A DNA stretch of 32,000 nucleotides, from contig NZ_CP195536.1 in NCBI RefSeq assembly GCF_051307035.1, positions 390,001 to 422,000 on the forward strand. Direction: 5' to 3'. Position 1 is the first letter of the stretch. Every line of letters starts with the position of its first letter. Below are positions 2,214 through 31,593 of the stretch, piece by piece. The position numbers and the translations under genes were made by a program. This DNA is from Psychrobacter sp. DM4 (GTDB lineage Bacteria > Pseudomonadota > Gammaproteobacteria > Pseudomonadales > Moraxellaceae). Below the pieces are notes generated by a model. That model was not told the origin of the DNA. It made no database searches and saw nothing but the letters and a program-made list of their open reading frames with translations.

Positions 2214-3845
2214 ATGAACATCATTGAACATCTAGAACAGACGGTCAGCACTGTCGTCTTAGGCAATAGCATGGATGCTGCGCAGCTTAGTCTACTTGAG
2301 CAGTTTTACGCGATTTTGGCAACGCGTCTGTCCATGCCAAAAGTCTACTCAATGCTACTTCGCAGTGACCAAATTAATGTACCTGTTCATGAGGCTATTC
2401 ATGACTCTTTGTTTGAGCAGGTATGGCAAGACCCTCATGCCCGTCAAATTATTATCAAAGAATTGTCAGCCGCGCATCATATCAATGAGATAGTCACCAC
2501 GCAACTGCTGATCAACGCGGCACCTATCGCTTATCAAGCGCTTAATGATCATGCTAGTGGTCAGTTTTTGCCCGCCTATTTGCAAACGCAACAACCAGTG
2601 TTACGCCAATATCTACCAGTATGGTCAGCACCAGTTATCGCTGATCATCTTATAGGTGCGACTCCTGAGATTATAGTCTTACCCTCTTCGTCAGAGGTCT
2701 TAAATCCTGATACATCCTCAGTAGTTGGCCAATCAACAGTAGCTGACCAATCAGATTTTGATAATACAAAGAAAGATAAGAGCGTATTGCCTTTAGCAAC
2801 CGGTGTTGAGCAAGAGGCGTTCGTTGATACGGACGCCATCCATGCCAATCCCTCCAAGCATCATTATTCTGAGTATTGTGATTCTGAGCAAAATAAATCT
2901 GATTCTGTTCGTATAGCAAACAACCCTGAGCTCTTGACTACTCGACCCTTTAGAAAGGTACGCGCTCACAATATAAGCGTTCGAAAAATATCTTGGCTTA
3001 TATTTGCCTTAGCGGTATTAGCAGGAATAGGACTGACTTGGGCGCTAGTTATTAAGCCCAAGCAAGTCGTAGTAGATACTCCTGCGCCGCCCACTATGGT
3101 CACACCGACAGAAGAACCAGCGGCGATACCCTTAACGCCTATATCGATGATCGTAGGTGTTGATGATAGCGGTCAGCTATACACGTGTAACGCAACTGTA
3201 GGCAACATCACTATGCAAAATGCACTCATACAGGCGTTTAATGTTAGCTTCGGTGAGCAAGCTAGCACTTGTGAGGTTACCATTGCCGAGGGAGTCGCCA
3301 CTGGTTTATCTAATATGACGGTACAAAGGTTACCGGATATGTTGACTTTGCTTAGAGCAGTACCGTTTGCACGTTTACAATTACAGGATGAGCGCATTAT
3401 ATTAGAAGCGCCTGATGATATGCTGCTCCAGCAGCTCCTCGGTGATATGCGAATTATTGTCCCGACTATGCAGATCAATAGCGCCGTTCCCATACCTTTA
3501 CCTGACAGCACCGCTATAAATAATGAGAACACTATTATTGGTGTGGATAATGCTACTGGTATGAATAATTCGCTTGAAAATGAAGCTTTGACTAATCAGA
3601 GCAATAATGAGACGTCTAGTATAAATAATTATCAGCCTAATGATGATACTGGAGATAGAATTATCTCTGATCCATTGGGCAACAATATAGGTAATGATAT
3701 AGGAAGCAGTGCACAAAACCGTTCTCAAAATACCAATCGAGGCATAAGTCCTCTACCTACTGTACCAGCAGGTCCGATATCTGTGTCTGAAGTAGATGAG
3801 ATGGCAAGTAGAGAGATTAGAGTCGATCCGGTGAGAGCCAACTAG
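2214..3845 (+). CDS. Single-pass membrane protein, paralog of the downstream OmpA-family protein but lacking the OmpA domain; Asn/Ser-rich low-complexity C-terminus
   Basis: The N-terminus MNIIEHLEQTVSTVVLG...LLEQFYAILATRL aligns with MDIISHLTRTVSPAVLG...LLEQFYAIFAARL of the ORF at 4384. One TM helix is present (WLIFALAVLAGIGLTWALVI). A shared Cys-pair middle domain aligns too (LYTCNATVG...STCEV vs LFACRMNVG...DKCRA). GAGGA lies upstream of the ATG. Confidence 0.6.
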   Translation: MNIIEHLEQTVSTVVLGNSMDAAQLSLLEQFYAILATRLSMPKVYSMLLRSDQINVPVHEAIHDSLFEQVWQDPHARQIIIKELSAAHHINEIVTTQLLINAAPIAYQALNDHASGQFLPAYLQTQQPVLRQYLPVWSAPVIADHLIGATPEIIVLPSSSEVLNPDTSSVVGQSTVADQSDFDNTKKDKSVLPLATGVEQEAFVDTDAIHANPSKHHYSEYCDSEQNKSDSVRIANNPELLTTRPFRKVRAHNISVRKISWLIFALAVLAGIGLTWALVIKPKQVVVDTPAPPTMVTPTEEPAAIPLTPISMIVGVDDSGQLYTCNATVGNITMQNALIQAFNVSFGEQASTCEVTIAEGVATGLSNMTVQRLPDMLTLLRAVPFARLQLQDERIILEAPDDMLLQQLLGDMRIIVPTMQINSAVPIPLPDSTAINNENTIIGVDNATGMNNSLENEALTNQSNNETSSINNYQPNDDTGDRIISDPLGNNIGNDIGSSAQNRSQNTNRGISPLPTVPAGPISVSEVDEMASREIRVDPVRAN

Positions 3846-4383: not shown

Positions 4384-6051
4384 ATGGATATTATCAGTCA
4401 TTTGACACGAACGGTCAGCCCAGCTGTATTAGGCGATGACCATAGCCCAGCTAAAAAGAGTTTGCTTGAGCAGTTCTACGCGATATTCGCAGCGCGTTTA
4501 GCTGACAATGAGACTTATGGACGTTTCTCTAACGAAAACATCGCCCGTGATGATCAAGGCTTTTATGATCGAGTATGGACAGATGGCGCACATCGTGATC
4601 GCATATCACGTGAGCTTGCAGGCGCACACAACGTCGATGCCACAGCTTCTCGTGGGTTGATTGCTATGGCAGCACCACTTGCTTACCATGAAATAAAGAG
4701 CTTGGCAGGTACGACGCCAGTGCCACAGTTTTTGAATGATAATTTATCCAGCTATCAGCAACATATTCCAGCATGGGCGAGTGCGGTTATTCCTGCGGGC
4801 ATGCTAGCTGCAGCTCCTGTTGTAGGTCACCGTATCTCGGATACGACAAGCACAGCGCCGCTAGTACGTGAAGAGGAGAAAGACGGTAGCTTTATGAAAG
4901 CGCTGTTACCTATTATTGGTTTAATTATTTTAGGTGCACTTGCTTGGGCACTCCTAAGAGGTTGCCAAGATGATCCAACACCTGTTGCCACGCCTGTAGT
5001 CGCTGAAGAAGTTGTGGAAGATGAGCAGACTATGGTTGCCTCTGCCATTGAACCTGCTTCATTAGCGCTTGCTACTGGCGAAGGAAATACTTTGTTTGCT
5101 TGCCGTATGAATGTTGGTGATGAGGCATTACAAACGACCCTTATGAATGCATTATCAACTACTTTCGGTGGAGAATCGGATAAGTGCCGTGCCGATGTCG
5201 ATGATAGCTTCGCAGCCGACATGCCAGCGAGTGCTGTCCTAGCCGCTATTTTACCTATTTTTCAAAGCTCTCCAAACGCTACTATGATCATTAAAGGTGA
5301 TCGTATTCTGGTTAATTCACCAGATGCTGCTGGACTTGAGCAGCTAGTTGCTGACATTCAAGCTGCTGCTCCAGGATTTATGGTATCAGCAGAAGGGCCG
5401 CTTGATATTCAAGGTGAGATCGATAACAGTCTAGTTGCTGCTGATACTGCCTTAAATAACATTGGTGAAAACCCAGATCCACGTGATGTCGCTCGCGCAT
5501 TGAGCCTACAAGTCATCAACTTCACTCTCGATGATGCCTTTATTCCAGATGCTAACAAGCCTTTCTTAGATCGTGCTGCCAAAATTATTACAGAAGTGCC
5601 TAATATGGAACTGGTCATTATTGGTCATACGGATGCACAAGCTTCGAATGCATATAATATGGAATTATCACAAGAGCGTGCTGATTCAGTGAGAGACTAT
5701 TTAGTATCGCAGGGTGTTGATGCTAGTAAATTGACCACTAAAGGTATGGGTGAAACAGATCCAATTGCTACTAATGCGACTGAACAAGGTCGTTTCCGTA
5801 ACCGTCGTATTGAGTTTACTTTGTACGATAGTAGTATGGTAGATGGTAATGGTATTGCTATTACTGCTGGTGACGGTGGTGATATGGGTACCAATATAAC
5901 GCCTGATAATAATATGTCAGATCCAGATTTGAATCCTTTGGATGGAACGATGCCAGACCCAGATTTAAACCCTCTCGATAGCAATAATGATGATTTGCTA
6001 CCAGATGGTGATGATCCAACTCAAGGCACAGTAGTGGACCCAACTAACTAA
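4384..6051 (+). CDS. OmpA-family peptidoglycan-binding membrane protein (N-terminal conserved domain, one TM helix, C-terminal OmpA_C-like domain)
   Basis: The 555 aa ORF has GAGGA 8 nt upstream of the ATG and a TM helix ALLPIIGLIILGALAWALL. The C-terminal OmpA-like domain reads NFTLDDAFIP...VIIGHTDAQASNAYNMELSQERADSVRDYLVSQGV...GMGETDPIA...NRRIEFTL. Confidence 0.85.
   Translation: MDIISHLTRTVSPAVLGDDHSPAKKSLLEQFYAIFAARLADNETYGRFSNENIARDDQGFYDRVWTDGAHRDRISRELAGAHNVDATASRGLIAMAAPLAYHEIKSLAGTTPVPQFLNDNLSSYQQHIPAWASAVIPAGMLAAAPVVGHRISDTTSTAPLVREEEKDGSFMKALLPIIGLIILGALAWALLRGCQDDPTPVATPVVAEEVVEDEQTMVASAIEPASLALATGEGNTLFACRMNVGDEALQTTLMNALSTTFGGESDKCRADVDDSFAADMPASAVLAAILPIFQSSPNATMIIKGDRILVNSPDAAGLEQLVADIQAAAPGFMVSAEGPLDIQGEIDNSLVAADTALNNIGENPDPRDVARALSLQVINFTLDDAFIPDANKPFLDRAAKIITEVPNMELVIIGHTDAQASNAYNMELSQERADSVRDYLVSQGVDASKLTTKGMGETDPIATNATEQGRFRNRRIEFTLYDSSMVDGNGIAITAGDGGDMGTNITPDNNMSDPDLNPLDGTMPDPDLNPLDSNNDDLLPDGDDPTQGTVVDPTN
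5920..5979 (+). repeat. In-frame tandem repeat encoding DPDLNPLD twice (36-nt period) in the acidic tail of the OmpA-family protein
   Basis: gatccagatttgaatcctttggat (5920-5943) and gacccagatttaaaccctctcgat (5956-5979) both translate to DPDLNPLD. Confidence 0.8.
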
Positions 6052-7242: not shown

Positions 7243-7845
7243 GGCAGCATCCTTTTTGGGTTTCTTTTGTATTATTTATTAGTGCTAATCTCAATCATTA
7301 GCGCTAAGTATTAAGCGCTCTTATATTATCGGATTTTGCGTTTGTCATCTGTCTATTATGTCAGTCATTATATAGACGGATAGTAACTTATTAACCTATC
7401 AAACGTGAAGCGTAAATGCTTGGCGTTTAAAGATTAGGAAAAGGTAACAGATGAGATGAGGTGTAAGATTATTTATACAGTTTGAGACAGTCAGCAAGTA
7501 TAGTGCATGCTAGTATTTATTGTATTTTGGCTATACAGTGTCCGTATTAGATGCTATTTTTGTTAAGGTTTTTGCTTTAAGTTGTCACCTTTATACCGTT
7601 TAAGATAAGCCTTGGACTACCAGCTGATAATAGATAAATTGTCAAAGTTGCAAGCGAACTGACATCACATCTTAGAGTCATACGTAAAATATAGCTGTAC
7701 TCTTAACCGCACTCTGTTAATCGCTATCATTGTAAAGTTAGCACTGTAGTCATTCATACTATGAGTCACAGTTGCCAGCATTAGAATAAAAAAGACTATT
7801 TTCTTTAGAGCATGATATTCAATTTAAAATAACTAGGTAGAAAAA

Positions 7846-10074
7846 ATGAAAAAACAACCCGCACAGTGGTTACTCAGTGCAGCCTCAGTAGGTATTGCAG
7901 GTATTATTCTAACTCAAAGCTACGGCACCGCAGTCGCTAATACTGAGACTGACGGGTTTGAGCCAACACCTGAACAAAAGATTACAACACGTCAAGTTGC
8001 CGCTTTGCTTGACCGCAGTCACTATCTAAATCAGCCCCTTGATGCCGGGATGGGTAGTGAAATACTCGCCATGTACATTGACAGTTTAGATCCGAACCAT
8101 ACTCTGTTTTTGCAGTCTGATGTTGATGAGTTCACCAAAAAATACGCTGACGATTTTGGTGATCGTCTTAAGCGTGGTGATTTGTCAGCAGGCGTCGATG
8201 TCTTTGAGCGCTACCGCAAGCGCTCAGATGAGTACTTTGAGATGGCTACCAAAATGCTCAAAAGTGATATCAAATTAACAGGTGATGAGACAATTGTACT
8301 GGATCGAGAAAAGCTGGGTCATTTTAAGACCAAAAAAGAGCAGCGTGATTATTGGACGCGCCAGTTAAAGTTTCAACTGTTAAGTATCACTTTGGGTCAA
8401 GAGGACGAAAAAGCCAAGGAAAAGGTATTCTTAGATAATCCTGATATCACTCGTGGACAAGATCTGGTGCGTGACGATCAGCGTACGCCCAATGAGATAC
8501 TACTCAACCGCTTGACGCGTCAGCAAGGACAGTTCGGCCGTCTCAAAAACGATGAGGTGATGGAGACTGTCCTTAATACGGCTATGCTGACCTATGACCC
8601 GCACAGTAACTATTATGCACCGATACAAGCGACCGAGTTACAGATTCAGTCAAGCTTGCAACTAGAGGGTATCGGCGTCTCCATCCGTCCTGATCGCAAA
8701 AACCCAGACTATACTCGAATTGTCACTTTAGTTGATGGTGGTCCTGCGGAAAAAACAGGCCAAATAAAACCGAATGATCTTATCGTCGGCATCGCAAAAG
8801 ACGGCAAAACGATGACGGATGTGGTCGGCTGGTCGACGCGAGAAGTCGTGGGTCTTATCCGCGGCAAACGCGGCACTTCGGTGACCCTTAAGCTGCGTCA
8901 ACCGAACACGCCAGATGCTAGCGCGCGTACCGTTACAGTAGTGCGCGATATTATTCAACAAGAAGAATCAGGCGTGCGTCAGCGCGTGGTAGAAGTCAAA
9001 TCACCCACTGACCAATCCCTAAAACGTATTGGTGTGCTTGAGATTCCAAGCTTTTATTTGAACTATCGCGCGCGCCGTAATGGTGAAGATTATCGCAGCG
9101 TCAGCATAGATACCGAGCGTGCGCTAAAAGAGCTAAACGAAGAAAATATCGATGGCCTCGTGGTAGATCTACGCAACAATCCAGGAGGCTCATTGGATGA
9201 AGTAGCCAAAATGCTTGGATTGTTCATTAAAGGTGGCCCTCTAGTACAAATTCGTGATAATCGTGGCAACATTCAGGTGTACCGTGATGACGACGGCGGC
9301 GAGCAGCTCTATAATGGCAAAATGGCTGTTATTACTAACTTAGCTTCAGCTTCAGCCAGTGAGATATTTGCAGCTGCCATTCAAGACTATGGTCGCGGCT
9401 TGGTGGTCGGTAGCACCACAACGGGCAAAGGCTCTGCACAGATTCAGCTGGACAATATAGCACTAGGATCAGCGACCCTTACCCAGCGTAAGTTCTATCG
9501 TATTACGGGAGGTAGTACACAAAACAAAGGCGTAGTACCAGATGTAGATTTAGTCGATATCTATGATGATGCAACCTTTGGCGAGCGCGCTCAGAAAAAA
9601 GCGCTACCTTGGGATACCATAAAGACAGCGGCATACAAGCCTGAGGGTAAGTTTACCTCTAATACGCTTGCCACGCTCAATCAGCAGTCAAAGATTCGTC
9701 AAGAGCAAAATCCGCAGTTTGTTTATCTATCGACGCTCAATGATATCCGTAATATGGAGGATGAGAAAAAACCTATCGAGATCGATATCAATAAGCGCCG
9801 CGCTAAGATGCAATTAATAGAGAAGCGCTCATTGGAGGCTGAGAATAAGCGTCTGATAGCAACTGGTGAAAAACCTTATGCCAACTGGAACGTTTATCAA
9901 GCGGCTATGGATGCCAAGTTTGAAGAGCGCAGTCAAATGAAGGCAGACGTACGTCCAGAGCTACCAGAAAGCGAAGCTTACATTAACGAAGCCGCTTATC
10001 TATTGTTGAGCGCAGAGCCGCAAATGCTTAGTAGTCCTAGTGAAAAACTATCCGCCGAAAAAAGAGGCATGTAA
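7846..10074 (+). CDS. prc: Tail-specific (C-terminal processing) protease Prc, S41 family with PDZ domain
   Basis: The 742 aa ORF has a signal peptide, an N-terminal Prc-type domain (DPNHTLFLQSDVDEF), a PDZ segment (LVDGGPAEKTG...NDLIVGI) and the S41 catalytic region (DLRNNPGGSL, ASASASEIFAAAIQDY). Confidence 0.9.
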   Translation: MKKQPAQWLLSAASVGIAGIILTQSYGTAVANTETDGFEPTPEQKITTRQVAALLDRSHYLNQPLDAGMGSEILAMYIDSLDPNHTLFLQSDVDEFTKKYADDFGDRLKRGDLSAGVDVFERYRKRSDEYFEMATKMLKSDIKLTGDETIVLDREKLGHFKTKKEQRDYWTRQLKFQLLSITLGQEDEKAKEKVFLDNPDITRGQDLVRDDQRTPNEILLNRLTRQQGQFGRLKNDEVMETVLNTAMLTYDPHSNYYAPIQATELQIQSSLQLEGIGVSIRPDRKNPDYTRIVTLVDGGPAEKTGQIKPNDLIVGIAKDGKTMTDVVGWSTREVVGLIRGKRGTSVTLKLRQPNTPDASARTVTVVRDIIQQEESGVRQRVVEVKSPTDQSLKRIGVLEIPSFYLNYRARRNGEDYRSVSIDTERALKELNEENIDGLVVDLRNNPGGSLDEVAKMLGLFIKGGPLVQIRDNRGNIQVYRDDDGGEQLYNGKMAVITNLASASASEIFAAAIQDYGRGLVVGSTTTGKGSAQIQLDNIALGSATLTQRKFYRITGGSTQNKGVVPDVDLVDIYDDATFGERAQKKALPWDTIKTAAYKPEGKFTSNTLATLNQQSKIRQEQNPQFVYLSTLNDIRNMEDEKKPIEIDINKRRAKMQLIEKRSLEAENKRLIATGEKPYANWNVYQAAMDAKFEERSQMKADVRPELPESEAYINEAAYLLLSAEPQMLSSPSEKLSAEKRGM

Positions 10075-10087
10075 GCATATACTTACA
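10070..10087 (+). promoter_or_regulatory. GacA/UvrY-type upstream activating box TGTAAG-N6-CTTACA (extended 9-bp arms span 10067-10090)
   Basis: tgtaag catata cttaca matches the published Gac box consensus TGTAAGN6CTTACA exactly. The arms gcatgtaag / cttacatgc are perfect inverted repeats. The prc stop codon TAA (10072-10074) lies inside the box. Confidence 0.55.
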
Positions 10088-10133
10088 TGCAATGAGTCTT
10101 TAGCGTCTTACTATCCATGGGCAGTTCTGCGAT

Positions 10134-10139
10134 TATAGT
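10134..10139 (+). promoter_or_regulatory. Candidate -10 hexamer (TATAGT) for the putative small RNA; no good -35, as expected for an activator-dependent promoter
   Basis: tatagt lies at 10134-10139, about 55 bp downstream of the box centre. The hexamer 17 bp upstream (ctatcc) is a poor -35. Confidence 0.35.
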
Positions 10140-10145
10140 CCTACA

Positions 10146-10328
10146 GCACAATTAAGTAATACTAGGGATTGGTATTCAAAGATTGTATCAGGGATGGTTT
10201 GCTGGTTAGGGATGGCAGGGCTAGATGCCCGATAACTACAGATAACCTCGGGATTAGGTTATCTGTAGTGTCAACAAGGATGGTTAGTAATAAAAACCGT
10301 GTAACGCTAGTCGTTATACGGTTTTGTT
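10146..10328 (+). ncRNA. Candidate Csr/Rsm-family (CsrA/RsmA-titrating) small RNA; the 5' end is only estimated
   Basis: Five GGA motifs fall within about 115 nt (10166-10168, 10192-10194, 10210-10212, 10251-10253, 10278-10280), in the recurring context (t/c)aGGGAt(t/g)g. Motif 1 sits in the GGGAU loop of a 7-bp stem (10158-10176). Motif 4 sits in the 9-nt loop of a perfect 12-bp stem (10236-10247 / 10257-10268). An intrinsic terminator follows at 10295-10328, and no ORF is present. Confidence 0.5.
10295..10328 (+). terminator. Intrinsic terminator closing the putative sRNA (and any prc read-through)
   Basis: The 12-bp stem aaccgtgtaacg (10295-10306) / cgttatacggtt (10312-10323) includes one G-U pair. 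The loop is ctagt, followed by ttttgtt. Confidence 0.7.
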
Positions 10329-10410
10329 ACGTTTGGTGAGCTGGTTTTGTTACAAAATCTTCTGCTGTTCATATTTTCTTACTAGTATTGAATTTATTTG
10401 TGTTCGTACA

Positions 10411-10450
10411 CAAAGAAGCCAGTCGCTTATTTGAGCGACTGGCTTCTTTG
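10411..10450. terminator. Strong hairpin downstream of slyD (probable slyD terminator)
   Basis: A perfect 17-bp stem joins caaagaagccagtcgct and agcgactggcttctttg, with loop tatttg. The U-tract is short on either strand, hence moderate confidence. Confidence 0.55.
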
Positions 10451-10508
10451 TATTACTTATAGTGCTAAATTAGCTTACTGTTTGCATGGATCTATTGTAA
10501 CGCAAGGA

Positions 10509-10994
10509 TCAATGCTCAACGCCACCAGCACCGTGGACATGGCCATGGCTTAGCTCATCTTCAGTTGCTGCGCGTACTTCTTGAATCTCAACGTCAAAGG
10601 TCAAACGCTTACCTGCCAAAGGATGGTTTGCATCAACAGTGACTTCTTCATCAGTCACATCAGTGACAGTTACGAGCATAACTTGCTCGCCTGCTTGTGA
10701 TTGGAACTGCATGCCTGGTTGAATATCTTCAACGCCTTGAAAATTGTCACGAGGCACTTTTTGTACCGCTTGGTCTTGATATTCGCCATAGCCATCAGCA
10801 GGCTCTACGACAGCGTTTACTTTTTCGCCAGCAGATTTGCCTTCTAGTTGTTTCTCTAGGCCTGGAATGATGTTTTGATGACCATGCAAATAAGCTAGTG
10901 GCTGACCGTCTTGAGACTGGTCTAAAACGTTGCCTTCGTCATCTTTTAGCGTGTAGTTAAATTTTACGGCAGTATCTTTTGTAATAGTCGTCAT
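10509..10994 (-). CDS. slyD: FKBP-type peptidyl-prolyl cis-trans isomerase SlyD
   Basis: The 161 aa ORF is collinear with E. coli SlyD (YLHGHxxxIxGLExxLEG, VPxDxF, DxNHxLAG). It has a short His-rich tail, HGHVHGAGGVEH. Confidence 0.88.
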   Translation of the reverse strand: MTTITKDTAVKFNYTLKDDEGNVLDQSQDGQPLAYLHGHQNIIPGLEKQLEGKSAGEKVNAVVEPADGYGEYQDQAVQKVPRDNFQGVEDIQPGMQFQSQAGEQVMLVTVTDVTDEEVTVDANHPLAGKRLTFDVEIQEVRAATEDELSHGHVHGAGGVEH

Positions 10995-28932: not shown

Positions 28933-29724
28933 ATGTCGAATTCTCGTCTATTATGGTCATCGATGACCGTTGCTACTGCTATGCTGCTTGGTGCTTGTAG
29001 CCCAGCTGCTGATGAGGCCGCTGATACCAATGTAGAGGCAGCTGACACTGCAACTAAGACCATACGTATCGCTACCGAAGGCGCTTACCCTCCTTTTAAT
29101 ATGACCAATGCTGACGGTAGTCTGTCAGGTTTTGATGTCGATGTTGCCAACGCATTGTGCGCGCAAATGCAAGCGAACTGCGAAGTAGTCGCTCAAGATT
29201 GGGACGGTATCATTCCAGGTCTACTGGCACAAAAGTACGATGCAGTCGTCGCTGGTATGTCAATCACCCCTGAGCGTCAAGAAAAAGTCGATTTTACCGA
29301 ACCTTACTTTGCTAATACTATGGTCTGGCTGACAGACACGAGTAGCGGTTTTGATCCTATGGCGATAAAAGATTTGACCTTGGGCGGTCAGCGTTCAACG
29401 ACGCCTGGCGCCTACTTGCAGGACAACTATGAAGGCAAAGATGGCAATACCGTTCAGTTGTATGACAATTACGATAATGCCTATTTAGATCTAAAATCTG
29501 GTCGTAGCAATGCAGTACTGGCCGAAAAAGTCTCTGCCAAATCATGGTTAGCTGACAATACCGAAGGCTTTGGTATTGTAGGCGATGAGATCGATAACAA
29601 TGACAATATCGCTATCGCGGTTCGTAAAGATGATCCGTTAAGAGACGAGTTTAATAAGGCCCTTAGTGAAATCCGTAGTAATGGTGAGCTGGCACGTCTT
29701 GAGCAAGAGAATTTTGGCCAGTAG
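28933..29724 (+). CDS. Basic amino acid (Lys/Arg/Orn/His-type) ABC substrate-binding lipoprotein, paralog 1
   Basis: A lipobox is present (LLGAC). Family-3 SBP motifs include IRIATEGAYPPFN, GFDVDVANALCAQMQANC (Cys pair as in HisJ/ArgT/AotJ) and QDWDGIIPGLLAQKYDAVVAGMSITPER. Confidence 0.85.
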   Translation: MSNSRLLWSSMTVATAMLLGACSPAADEAADTNVEAADTATKTIRIATEGAYPPFNMTNADGSLSGFDVDVANALCAQMQANCEVVAQDWDGIIPGLLAQKYDAVVAGMSITPERQEKVDFTEPYFANTMVWLTDTSSGFDPMAIKDLTLGGQRSTTPGAYLQDNYEGKDGNTVQLYDNYDNAYLDLKSGRSNAVLAEKVSAKSWLADNTEGFGIVGDEIDNNDNIAIAVRKDDPLRDEFNKALSEIRSNGELARLEQENFGQ

Positions 29725-29823
29725 CTTAGACCATAACGCTTGTCGACACGGATTAAGCGGTAAGTGCAAGCTCACTGCTATCGCCCAAACCTACTATTTG
29801 ACTAAATATACCAAGGACTTATT

Positions 29824-30765
29824 ATGATGAAAAAATCAACCACACTGACTACCAAAGCTAAGTGGCTTGCACCTGTCAGTATCGCGATGCTTATGCTCGC
29901 AGGCTGTAGCAACAATAATACGACTACCGATGAGACTGTAGTAGTCAATACAGCAACTGACGATGCACCAATGAGTATCAAAATTGCGACTGAATCAAGC
30001 TATAAGCCGTTTAGCTATACGGATGCTGATGGTAAATTGATCGGCTATGAGATCGAACTGATAGATGCTCTATGCGCGCAAATGAAAGCGGACTGTGACG
30101 TGATCTCACAAGACTGGGATGGCCTAATTCCTGGTCTCAATGCACAAAAATTCGATGCCATTATTGCTGGTATGTCGATTACCCCTGAGCGTCAAGAAGT
30201 CATTCAATTCTCTGATCCTTACTTTTATAGCAGCATTGTCTTAATCGGTAAAAAGGGCGATGACATTACTATTGACGCGCTTAGCGGTCAACCTATTGGC
30301 TCTCAGCGTGCGACGGTATCATCACAGTACTTGCAAGACGAGCACGCCGATGCTGATATCAAGCTTTATGATACGCAAGACAACGCCTATTTAGATCTAA
30401 CCTCAGGTCGCACGCGCGCAATGATGTCAGACAAGGTCACCGGTCTTGATTGGTTAAAGACTGAAGCAGGTCAGAACTACGAAATCAAAGGTGCTGAGAT
30501 TAGCACTGATGAAGACGCCATGGGTATTGGTTTTCGTAAAGACGATGCCTTGGTTGCTAAATTCAACAAAGCACTTAGTGAGCTTAAAGCCAATGGCACT
30601 TACGAGCAAATCACAGGAAGCTATTTTGGTACTAGCTCAACTGCCGTAGCTCAGCAAGCGACTGCTAATAACAGTGTAGAAAAAGTGGTCGTCATTGATG
30701 ATGGCAGCGTAGATGGTAATGCACTAATCGCTGAAGAAGAGCAAGCAGAAGCGATGGCTAACTAA
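29824..30765 (+). CDS. Basic amino acid ABC substrate-binding lipoprotein, paralog 2 (with about 45 aa C-terminal extension)
   Basis: A lipobox is present (MLAGC). It has the same motif set (IKIATESSYKPFS, LCAQMKADC, QDWDGLIPGLNAQKFDAIIAGMSITPER). An extra tail, STAVAQQATANNSVEKVVVIDDGSVDGNALIAEEEQAEAMAN, is absent from paralogs 1 and 3. Confidence 0.85.
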   Translation: MMKKSTTLTTKAKWLAPVSIAMLMLAGCSNNNTTTDETVVVNTATDDAPMSIKIATESSYKPFSYTDADGKLIGYEIELIDALCAQMKADCDVISQDWDGLIPGLNAQKFDAIIAGMSITPERQEVIQFSDPYFYSSIVLIGKKGDDITIDALSGQPIGSQRATVSSQYLQDEHADADIKLYDTQDNAYLDLTSGRTRAMMSDKVTGLDWLKTEAGQNYEIKGAEISTDEDAMGIGFRKDDALVAKFNKALSELKANGTYEQITGSYFGTSSTAVAQQATANNSVEKVVVIDDGSVDGNALIAEEEQAEAMAN

Positions 30766-30786
30766 ATTTTGGATTGAATATCAAGG

Positions 30787-31593
30787 ATGATCATGACAAA
30801 GACTTTTGCATCACTGATAGCGATGACAGCTTTGGCTTTGGTAGGTTGTAGTAACAGTCAAGACAACGCAGGTACCAATACTGAATCAATAGACACCGCT
30901 GCCAACAAGGACGATGTCTTACGCGTGGCAACAGAAGGTGCTTATGCGCCTTTTAACTATACCAATGCTGATGGCTCTTTGGGCGGCTTTGATGTCGATA
31001 TGGCAAACGCTATTTGTGAGGAGATGAAAGTTACTTGTGAGATTGTGGCACAAGATTGGGACGGGATTATTCCAGGTCTCAAGGCGGGCAAATATGACGC
31101 TATTGTCGCCGCAATGTCAGTGACACCAGAGCGCGCACAACAAGTGAGCTTCACCGATCCCTATTTTAGCAATACTCTAGTGTTTTTGGCCAAAAAAGAC
31201 AGCAGCTTCGATCCTAGCAATCCTGATGATATCAATACTAATGCTATTGCCGCTCAGCGCTCAACGATCTCATCACAGTGGTTAGAGGGTGAGTATCCTC
31301 AAGCTAATATACGGTTGTATGACACGCTGAGTAACGCATTTTTGGATTTAGGGTCAGGACGTGTCGATGCGATGGTCTCTGACAAACTGCCTGCTATCGA
31401 ATGGCTAAGCTCAGAATCTGGTAGCAGTTATGTGCTAAAAGGCGATGAGATCGACATCAAAGATAACTTTGCGATAGCGGTGCGCCCAGGGGATGAGCTA
31501 GAAGGTAAGATTAATCAGGCGTTAGCAAACATAAAAGCAGACGGTACTTATGATGCGCTAAACGATAAATATTTTTCAGTAGGTATGCAGTAG
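30787..31593 (+). CDS. Basic amino acid ABC substrate-binding lipoprotein, paralog 3
   Basis: A lipobox is present (LVGC). Motifs include LRVATEGAYAPFN, ICEEMKVTC and QDWDGIIPGLKAGKYDAIVAAMSVTPER. Confidence 0.85.
   Translation: MIMTKTFASLIAMTALALVGCSNSQDNAGTNTESIDTAANKDDVLRVATEGAYAPFNYTNADGSLGGFDVDMANAICEEMKVTCEIVAQDWDGIIPGLKAGKYDAIVAAMSVTPERAQQVSFTDPYFSNTLVFLAKKDSSFDPSNPDDINTNAIAAQRSTISSQWLEGEYPQANIRLYDTLSNAFLDLGSGRVDAMVSDKLPAIEWLSSESGSSYVLKGDEIDIKDNFAIAVRPGDELEGKINQALANIKADGTYDALNDKYFSVGMQ

Follow-up and report, generated by a model that had tools for sequence, protein, structure and literature searches.

The 32,000-nucleotide (nt) stretch of Psychrobacter sp. DM4 that we analysed (contig NZ_CP195536.1, positions 390,001 to 422,000; hereafter the window, in whose numbering all coordinates are given) carries the tail-specific protease gene prc and, converging on it from downstream, a slyD-type gene. 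The spacer between them, which begins after the end of prc at 10074, holds a predicted small RNA (sRNA) gene with the features of the Csr/Rsm class, that is, of RNAs that bind and sequester the regulator CsrA. The features of the locus are collected in Table 1.

Table 1. Features of the prc-slyD locus in the window (SL, stem-loop; MFE, minimum free energy; ORF, open reading frame)
Feature	Position	Strand	Basis
Extended palindrome with 9-bp arms, enclosing the 18-bp Gac/UvrY-type box	10067-10090 (box 10070-10087)	unstranded	sequence
TCTTAC block in the linker between box and -10	10106-10111	+	columns at least 90% conserved in ortholog alignment
Promoter-proximal block TCTGCGATTATAGT with -10-like TATAGT (10134-10139)	10126-10139	+	sequence; kept across orthologs
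Predicted small RNA, about 185-190 nt	10146-10334	+	model R1, conservation limits, compensatory changes, G-U pairs
SL1: 7-bp stem (10158-10164/10170-10176), GGGAU loop with GGA1 (10166-10168)	10158-10176	+	MFE fold
GGA motif 2 (cAGGGAUGG), linker or weak hairpin	10189-10197	+	GGA invariant in 67 orthologs
GGA motif 3 (uAGGGAUGG), single-stranded or tetraloop	10207-10215	+	fold; ortholog alignment
SL3: GGGC/GCCC stem, UAGAU loop	10218-10230	+	fold; AU to GC exchange (either way) in 11 sequences
SL4: long hairpin, 13-bp perfect core (10236-10248/10256-10268)	10231-10272	+	fold; covariation
GGA motif 5 (ACAAGGAUGG), unpaired, directly before the terminator	10274-10283	+	fold; ortholog alignment
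Intrinsic terminator: core hairpin 10293-10325, U-rich tail UUUUGUUACGUUU	10287-10334	+	terminator prediction; covariation
prc (tail-specific protease, 742 aa)	7846-10074	+	ORF list; Pfam TSP_NTD, PDZ, Peptidase_S41, DUF3340; NCBIfam prc
slyD-type FKBP peptidyl-prolyl isomerase gene, convergent downstream neighbour	10509-10994	-	Pfam FKBP_C; NCBIfam PRK10737 peptidylprolyl isomerase
Separate 19-bp hairpin outside the sRNA, most likely the terminator of convergent slyD	10410-10451	unstranded	ortholog conservation of the sRNA unit stops short of the hairpin

The arms of the palindrome at the end of prc, GCATGTAAG (10067-10075) and CTTACATGC (10082-10090), are perfectly complementary over 9 bp. 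The enclosed box, TGTAAG-catata-CTTACA (TGTAAGCATATACTTACA), is unique in the 32 kb when up to one mismatch is allowed, with 0.11 occurrences expected by chance, and the stop codon of prc (TAA, 10072-10074) lies within it. An earlier description of the locus, made from the letters alone (hereafter the sequence-only reading), had reported the exact box, the perfect arms and the enclosed stop codon, and we read all three at the same positions. It had further described a -10-like TATAGT lacking a credible -35 element; the hexamer is present, and a search of the region 9900-10600 for a sigma-70 -35/-10 pair found none. Its statement that no GGA occurs between the box and the -10 was borne out by a motif count of zero. 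The block around the hexamer reads AATCTGCGATTATAAC in the orthologs and ATTTGCGATTATAG in the sRNA genes at other loci that are described below. About 19 nt past the box, the TCTTAC block looks like a third half-site, and box-driven sRNA genes elsewhere have an equivalent GACTTAC or GACTTAA. Judging from the spacing to the -10, the 5ʹ end of the RNA would lie at about 10145-10146, and its 3ʹ end was placed in the U-rich tail of the terminator.

The segment 10146-10332 folded with a minimum free energy of -63.9 kcal/mol (z = -5.2 against dinucleotide shuffles, of which 0 of 200 were as good). The sequence-only reading had counted five GGA motifs downstream of the -10 and assigned each a place in the fold. 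All five were located, at 10166, 10192, 10210, 10251 and 10278. Five GGA in 183 nt, compared with a window mean of 1.2, fall in the top 0.6% of + strand windows, and five GGAT (GGAU in RNA) fall in the top 0.2%, a count never attained on the - strand. The proposed placement of motif 1, in the GGGAU loop of a 7-bp stem, agrees with the MFE fold, and so does that of motif 5, unpaired ahead of the terminator. Motif 4 was confirmed in the loop of the long perfect stem, the core of which we counted as 13 bp; this 7-nt loop displays CGGGAUU, with the GGA at 10251-10253. For motifs 2 and 3, both suggested to form GGGA tetraloops, the outcome was divided: motif 3 lies in a tetraloop, and motif 2 is partly paired, so that its status as a loop or single-stranded site is ambiguous. 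The terminator hairpin and U-run expected at the end of the RNA were found as well, as a core hairpin followed by a T-rich tail.

To follow the locus through related genomes, we scanned with the Prc protein and obtained 80 loci, 78 of them titled Psychrobacter and two from unclassified metagenome-assembled genomes (labelled Gammaproteobacteria and Pseudomonadales). Prc identity across these loci was 82-95%, the closest being Psychrobacter sp. DM8 (NZ_CP195538.1, 95%). The box is found just past prc in 76 of the 80; 66 of these have it exactly, and in 10 it deviates at one or two of its outermost letters. We built a covariance model (R1) on 67 distinct orthologs, and it detects the RNA in 76 of the 80 loci with 103-258 bits; the match in the window spans 10132-10334 and scores 192 bits. 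Two of the four misses are loci that end right after prc, and the other two are truly without box and RNA. Of the 78 species-level genomes in which the locus extends past prc, 76 thus carry the sRNA unit behind this gene. The two genomes without it, Psychrobacter sp. bablab_jr014 (L073) and P. aestuarii (L075), have a short prc-slyD spacer (5150-5450 of these loci) with an ordinary hairpin and T-run after prc instead. Since the unit is present or absent as a whole in the prc loci, it is a discrete gene, and it is a presence/absence polymorphism within the genus.

In the MAFFT alignment of the spacers, the sequence before the box could not be aligned; conservation runs from the box through the linker and the AATCTGCGATTATAAC block into the RNA and ends abruptly after the terminator tail UUUGUUACGU. 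The distance from prc to the box is variable. From the box onward to the sRNA the sequence is conserved with hardly any gaps, and the -10 block is among the best-conserved parts of the alignment. Most Psychrobacter orthologs have an additional 5ʹ hairpin (UUGAACGAAACGGUUCAUU) that is missing from the window RNA (region 10140-10160). Most relatives also have UGGAU in the SL3 loop, which is their sixth GGA site, where the window has UAGAU. Orthologs carry 5-9 GGA, usually six, and the window RNA has five because of the UAGAU loop and the missing 5ʹ hairpin. Psychrobacter sp. DM8 (L001) shares this variant with the window.

The secondary structure is supported by compensatory changes. RNAalifold, run on the 67 sequences, returned 48 pairs, 28 of them with such changes. 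In the five local helices 98.4% of the cells form standard pairs, a share that drops to 29-50% if the 3ʹ partners are shifted by 1-3 columns; changes on both sides occur in 27 of 44 pairs, and none of 500 shuffles reached any of the five measures used. SL4 has compensatory changes in 11 of 12 consensus pairs and the terminator in 12 of 19, whereas SL1, which is 99% paired, has double changes in two of six stem pairs. The 3-bp helix predicted at the second GGA shows no covariation. In contrast to the stems, the SL1 loop ACUAGGGAUUGGU, the GGA of motifs 2 and 3, the GGGAUU of SL4 and the GGAU of motif 5 hardly vary, if at all. Variable stems with invariant loops are the expected signature of loops that are read by a protein. 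The conservation of box and GGA motifs with compensatory changes in the stems, by which the sequence-only reading proposed to check itself, was thus seen across the genus.

The same alignment bears on the strand and on the coding potential of the unit. G-U pairs are abundant (for example, one SL1 pair is U-G in 66 of the 67 sequences) and are compatible only with the + strand, to which we therefore assigned the RNA. An ORF of 56 aa with a TTG start (10169-10339) appears in the mechanical ORF list, and the locus could in principle encode a small protein instead of a regulatory RNA. However, the orthologs do not keep this ORF: their longest + strand ORF ranges from 18 to 68 aa, and the ortholog RNAs differ in length by 1, 2, 4 and 5 nt, which are not multiples of three. 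The substitutions are, moreover, pairwise compensatory and not codon-patterned. We therefore rejected the coding reading, whose probability we consider negligible.

The absence of a called sigma-70 promoter, together with the lack of a canonical terminator between prc and the RNA, could also mean that the RNA is the 3ʹ untranslated region (UTR) of prc, or is processed from it, without a promoter of its own. The palindrome would then be a hairpin of the prc transcript and not a protein site, and in agreement with this its flanks show the covariation expected of a hairpin, in RNA or in DNA. The three pairs adjoining the box read CCA/TGG, GCG/CGC, CTA/TAG or TGA/TCA in relatives and GCA/TGC in the window (48 Psychrobacter loci, corresponding to 10064-10093). 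In 31 cells both sides had changed, and no shuffle reached this cell count or the covariation score; the number of pair positions with double changes was, however, no higher than in shuffles, and 7-14 of the 48 sequences are unpaired at each position. On the other hand, the 18-bp core is invariant in sequence, beyond what pairing alone would account for, and is the known Gac/UvrY box. Box, linker and -10 block also precede related sRNA genes at loci without prc, and at the prc locus it is the segment from box to sRNA, with its -10 block, that is conserved while the distance to prc varies. We consider it very unlikely that the RNA is only a part of the prc transcript, and prefer a separate gene with its own box.

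The two uses of the palindrome may nevertheless coexist. The flank extension is limited to the prc-proximal copy of the box and is absent from the box-driven genes elsewhere. In genomes with the sRNA, no hairpin apart from the palindrome comes after prc, whereas a normal terminator occupies this place in the two genomes that lack the sRNA. The 24-nt palindrome may therefore serve both as Gac box and as the 3ʹ-end hairpin or terminator of the prc mRNA, in which case read-through from prc and GacA-dependent transcription of the sRNA would interfere. Since no U-run follows the palindrome, we treat this as a lead, and a somewhat doubtful one.

When the whole window was searched against Rfam at gathering thresholds, no family reached its score. 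In the region 9950-10550, no match at E ≤ 10 was obtained with the models for CsrB (RF00018), CsrC (RF00084), RsmY (RF00195), PrrB_RsmZ (RF00166) and RsmX (RF02144), in line with the earlier remark that the RNA does not resemble the enterobacterial or pseudomonad members. The matches that did appear there at this cutoff were terminator-like noise (a trpB motif at 36 bits against a threshold of 59, Thr_leader, and microRNA models on the slyD terminator) and were discarded. R1 found no second copy of the sRNA within the window, its other matches covering terminators only.

Relatives of the RNA were also found beyond the 80 prc loci. A metagenome scan with TGTAAGCANNTGCTTACA returned 120 loci, in many of which one side of the box carries 7-14 GGA over about 330 nt. 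R1 recognised four further orthologs among them; at loci that have no prc, it scored a set of GGA-rich RNAs with box and terminator lower, at 27-52 bits, though still significantly. The layout of these relatives is box, TGACG, GACTTAC or GACTTAA, ATTTGCGATTATAG, and then ACGGCA at the start of the RNA. In one contig from a more distant relative (L157:3034-5166), nagZ and a syntenic prc whose product is 67% identical to the window Prc are followed by three tandem genes, each with a box and a GGA-rich sRNA; a CpxA-like kinase comes after the trio, in place of slyD. The 3ʹ halves of these copies align module by module with the Psychrobacter RNA (GGA-loop hairpin, long GGA-loop hairpin, GGA site, terminator), and their modules have the canonical loops AAGGAU or CAGGAU. 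Below the Rfam thresholds, one copy matches RsmY with 29.6 bits (E = 1e-4; threshold 57), another RsmY with 18 bits (E = 0.16), and the remaining one CsrB with 24.7 bits (threshold 71); both families are in the expected clan. The relatives recognised by R1 and the L157 alignment place the window RNA in a broader group of Gac-box sRNAs outside the curated models. Together with its box-driven relatives, the Psychrobacter RNA appears to make up a Csr/Rsm family not covered by Rfam, with 0-3 copies at the prc locus.

The locus has been predicted before. Kulkarni et al. 2006 (Nucleic Acids Res 34:3361, PMC1488887) searched 60 species with CsrA homologs, P. arcticum among them, and their Table 2 lists for this species 'rsmX, prc/slyD, -> -> <-' among the lower-confidence 'additional predictions'. 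Its description there includes 'a strong rsmY upstream site' as well as GGA placed in loops, and its low density of AGGA/ARGGA was the reason for ranking it as no more than an 'additional prediction'; rsmY at Psyc_1521/1522 and rsmZ inside Psyc_0155 were predicted in the same genome. P. arcticum rsmX and the window RNA agree in genus, neighbouring genes, orientation (prc -> sRNA -> <- slyD), rsmY-type upstream site, low AGGA density and GGA in loops. The earlier candidate differs in being a computational prediction in one genome, with neither covariation of the structure, genus-wide conservation nor experiments behind it. No locus labelled P. arcticus is among our 80 prc loci. Matched by flanking genes and orientation, the 2006 candidate is almost certainly the ortholog of the window sRNA, because 76 of the 78 species genomes with the locus past prc have the unit at this place. 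The novelty of the locus is therefore low, as it was already predicted in 2006 and the sRNA class is known.

The five features used by Kulkarni et al. were all found in the window: an intergenic position, GGA density, a 3ʹ terminator, GGA in loops and an 18-bp upstream site. As to density, four of the five motifs fit AGGA/ARGGA, and the motifs are less dense than in the canonical members. As to placement, hairpin loops hold GGA1, GGA4 and, in relatives, the GGA of SL3; GGA3 and GGA5 lie unpaired, and only GGA2 is ambiguous.

Among the known systems, Pseudomonas RsmX, RsmY and RsmZ (clan CL00106) are close in layout. They share the upstream GacA box TGTAAG-N6-CTTACA, a promoter without a good -35, a length of 110-190 nt, GGA in hairpin loops and linkers, and a rho-independent terminator, and they act by titrating RsmA/CsrA. 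They differ in that the window RNA has no match to their models, the syntenic homologs of L157 alone reaching sub-threshold scores, and in that its motifs are mostly (A/C)GGGAU. E. coli CsrB and CsrC likewise have the 18-bp upstream site, through which BarA-UvrY activates them, and multiple GGA loops that sequester CsrA; they are much longer (CsrB about 360 nt), carry many more GGA sites, and show no sequence or model match to the window RNA. Closer in taxonomy, in the same family Moraxellaceae, CsrB, CsrC and CsrD of A. baumannii are described, in papers that cite the work, as sRNA sponges by which CsrA is bound and inhibited, and CsrB was enriched when RNA immunoprecipitation of CsrA was followed by quantitative PCR (Singh et al. 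2025, mBio 16:e0405824, cited in PMC13643297 and PMC13516227). The citing papers mention no control by GacA in Acinetobacter. GacS/GacA and CsrA are documented in Acinetobacter, and a 2022 review names no sRNA for the Acinetobacter Gac system.

The GGGAU context of four of the five motifs, as against the classic A(N)GGA, raises the question of the partner of the RNA. A structured sRNA under control of the box could have another main role, as a base-pairing regulator or as a decoy for another RNA-binding protein that reads (A/C)GGGAU; the failure of every curated Csr/Rsm model to match, and the low AGGA/ARGGA density that put the locus among the 'additional predictions' of Kulkarni et al., are compatible with such a role. 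However, AGGGA fits the ARGGA form of CsrA sites, and GGA in loops combined with a Gac-type box and a terminator is the signature that defines the class. Furthermore, the homologous modules of L157 have canonical loops and weak RsmY or CsrB matches. Motif 5, for its part, is close to RUACARGGAUGU, the CsrA consensus that Dubey et al. reportedly obtained in 2005 by SELEX (systematic evolution of ligands by exponential enrichment). A main partner other than CsrA seems unlikely to us.

Several observations weigh against a CsrA sponge. Neither csrA nor gacA/uvrY is encoded in the 32-kb window or in any of the 80 Psychrobacter prc loci, a search that covered these loci only. The sRNA gene is missing from two related species and is thus dispensable. 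Five GGA are few for an RNA of the CsrB type, the second of them is partly paired in the MFE fold, and, as described above, none of the five Csr/Rsm models matches. In the literature that we searched there is no experiment on any Psychrobacter Csr/Rsm RNA, and no transcript, GacA or CsrA data. As to the regulators, the presence of csrA and gacA in the source genome may be expected from the inclusion of P. arcticum in the 2006 search, which was limited to species with CsrA homologs, and from what is known of the family. A tblastn search of the window and 200 loci with E. coli CsrA and UvrY gave one match, a CsrA-like ORF in an unrelated metagenome contig (L111). In that contig (L111:151-577), a Gac-type box and a short GGA-rich terminated RNA are followed by the 53-aa CsrA-like ORF, 39% identical to E. 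coli CsrA; the arrangement could be an sRNA-csrA cassette.

Taken together, the evidence argues for the Csr/Rsm-family sponge RNA that the sequence-only reading had proposed: every feature of the class that could be computed is present, and genus-wide conservation and covariation strengthen the case. We consider it likely that the window encodes, on the + strand, a Gac-box-driven sRNA of about 190 nt that acts as a CsrA sponge of the Csr/Rsm class. According to this model, a response-regulator dimer of the GacA/UvrY family would bind to the palindrome, whose centre lies about 67 bp ahead of the predicted start, and would switch on a promoter in which the -10 region is conserved and a usable -35 is lacking. 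The transcript would fold into a series of hairpins closing with the intrinsic terminator, and its five GGA motifs (most relatives have six) would be exposed in hairpin loops and in linkers that stay single-stranded. As mimics of ribosome-binding sites, they would sequester CsrA dimers, which would relieve the control exerted by CsrA on its target mRNAs.

Elsewhere in the window, the nagZ-prc spacer (7243-7845) is unusually long, at 600 bp. It contains at 7462 a near-box, TGTAAGATTATTTATACA, with two mismatches, which we rejected as a chance occurrence, as GGA is not enriched there, no terminator adjoins it and R1 does not match; the near-box is found upstream of prc in L059 and L079 too. Two OmpA-related paralogs lie side by side further upstream (2214-3845 and 4384-6051), and in L127 the first has a 41% match to the homolog of the second. 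Three genes for amino-acid ABC substrate-binding proteins stand in tandem at 28933-31593. The OmpA-related pair and the ABC substrate-binding trio are ordinary gene duplications.

The prc-slyD sRNA reveals no new kind of regulation. In gammaproteobacteria, however, the Gac-Csr cascade is a master switch of metabolism and lifestyle, and homology searches do not easily reveal its sRNA components. What was in 2006 a prediction in a single genome has become an RNA family supported by covariation, with a structure, promoter elements and a phylogenetic spread. Beyond that prediction, the analysis contributes a structure backed by covariation, the distribution of the unit across the genus and a connection to a group of Gac-box sRNAs that is not yet curated, which together provide a basis for a curated family.

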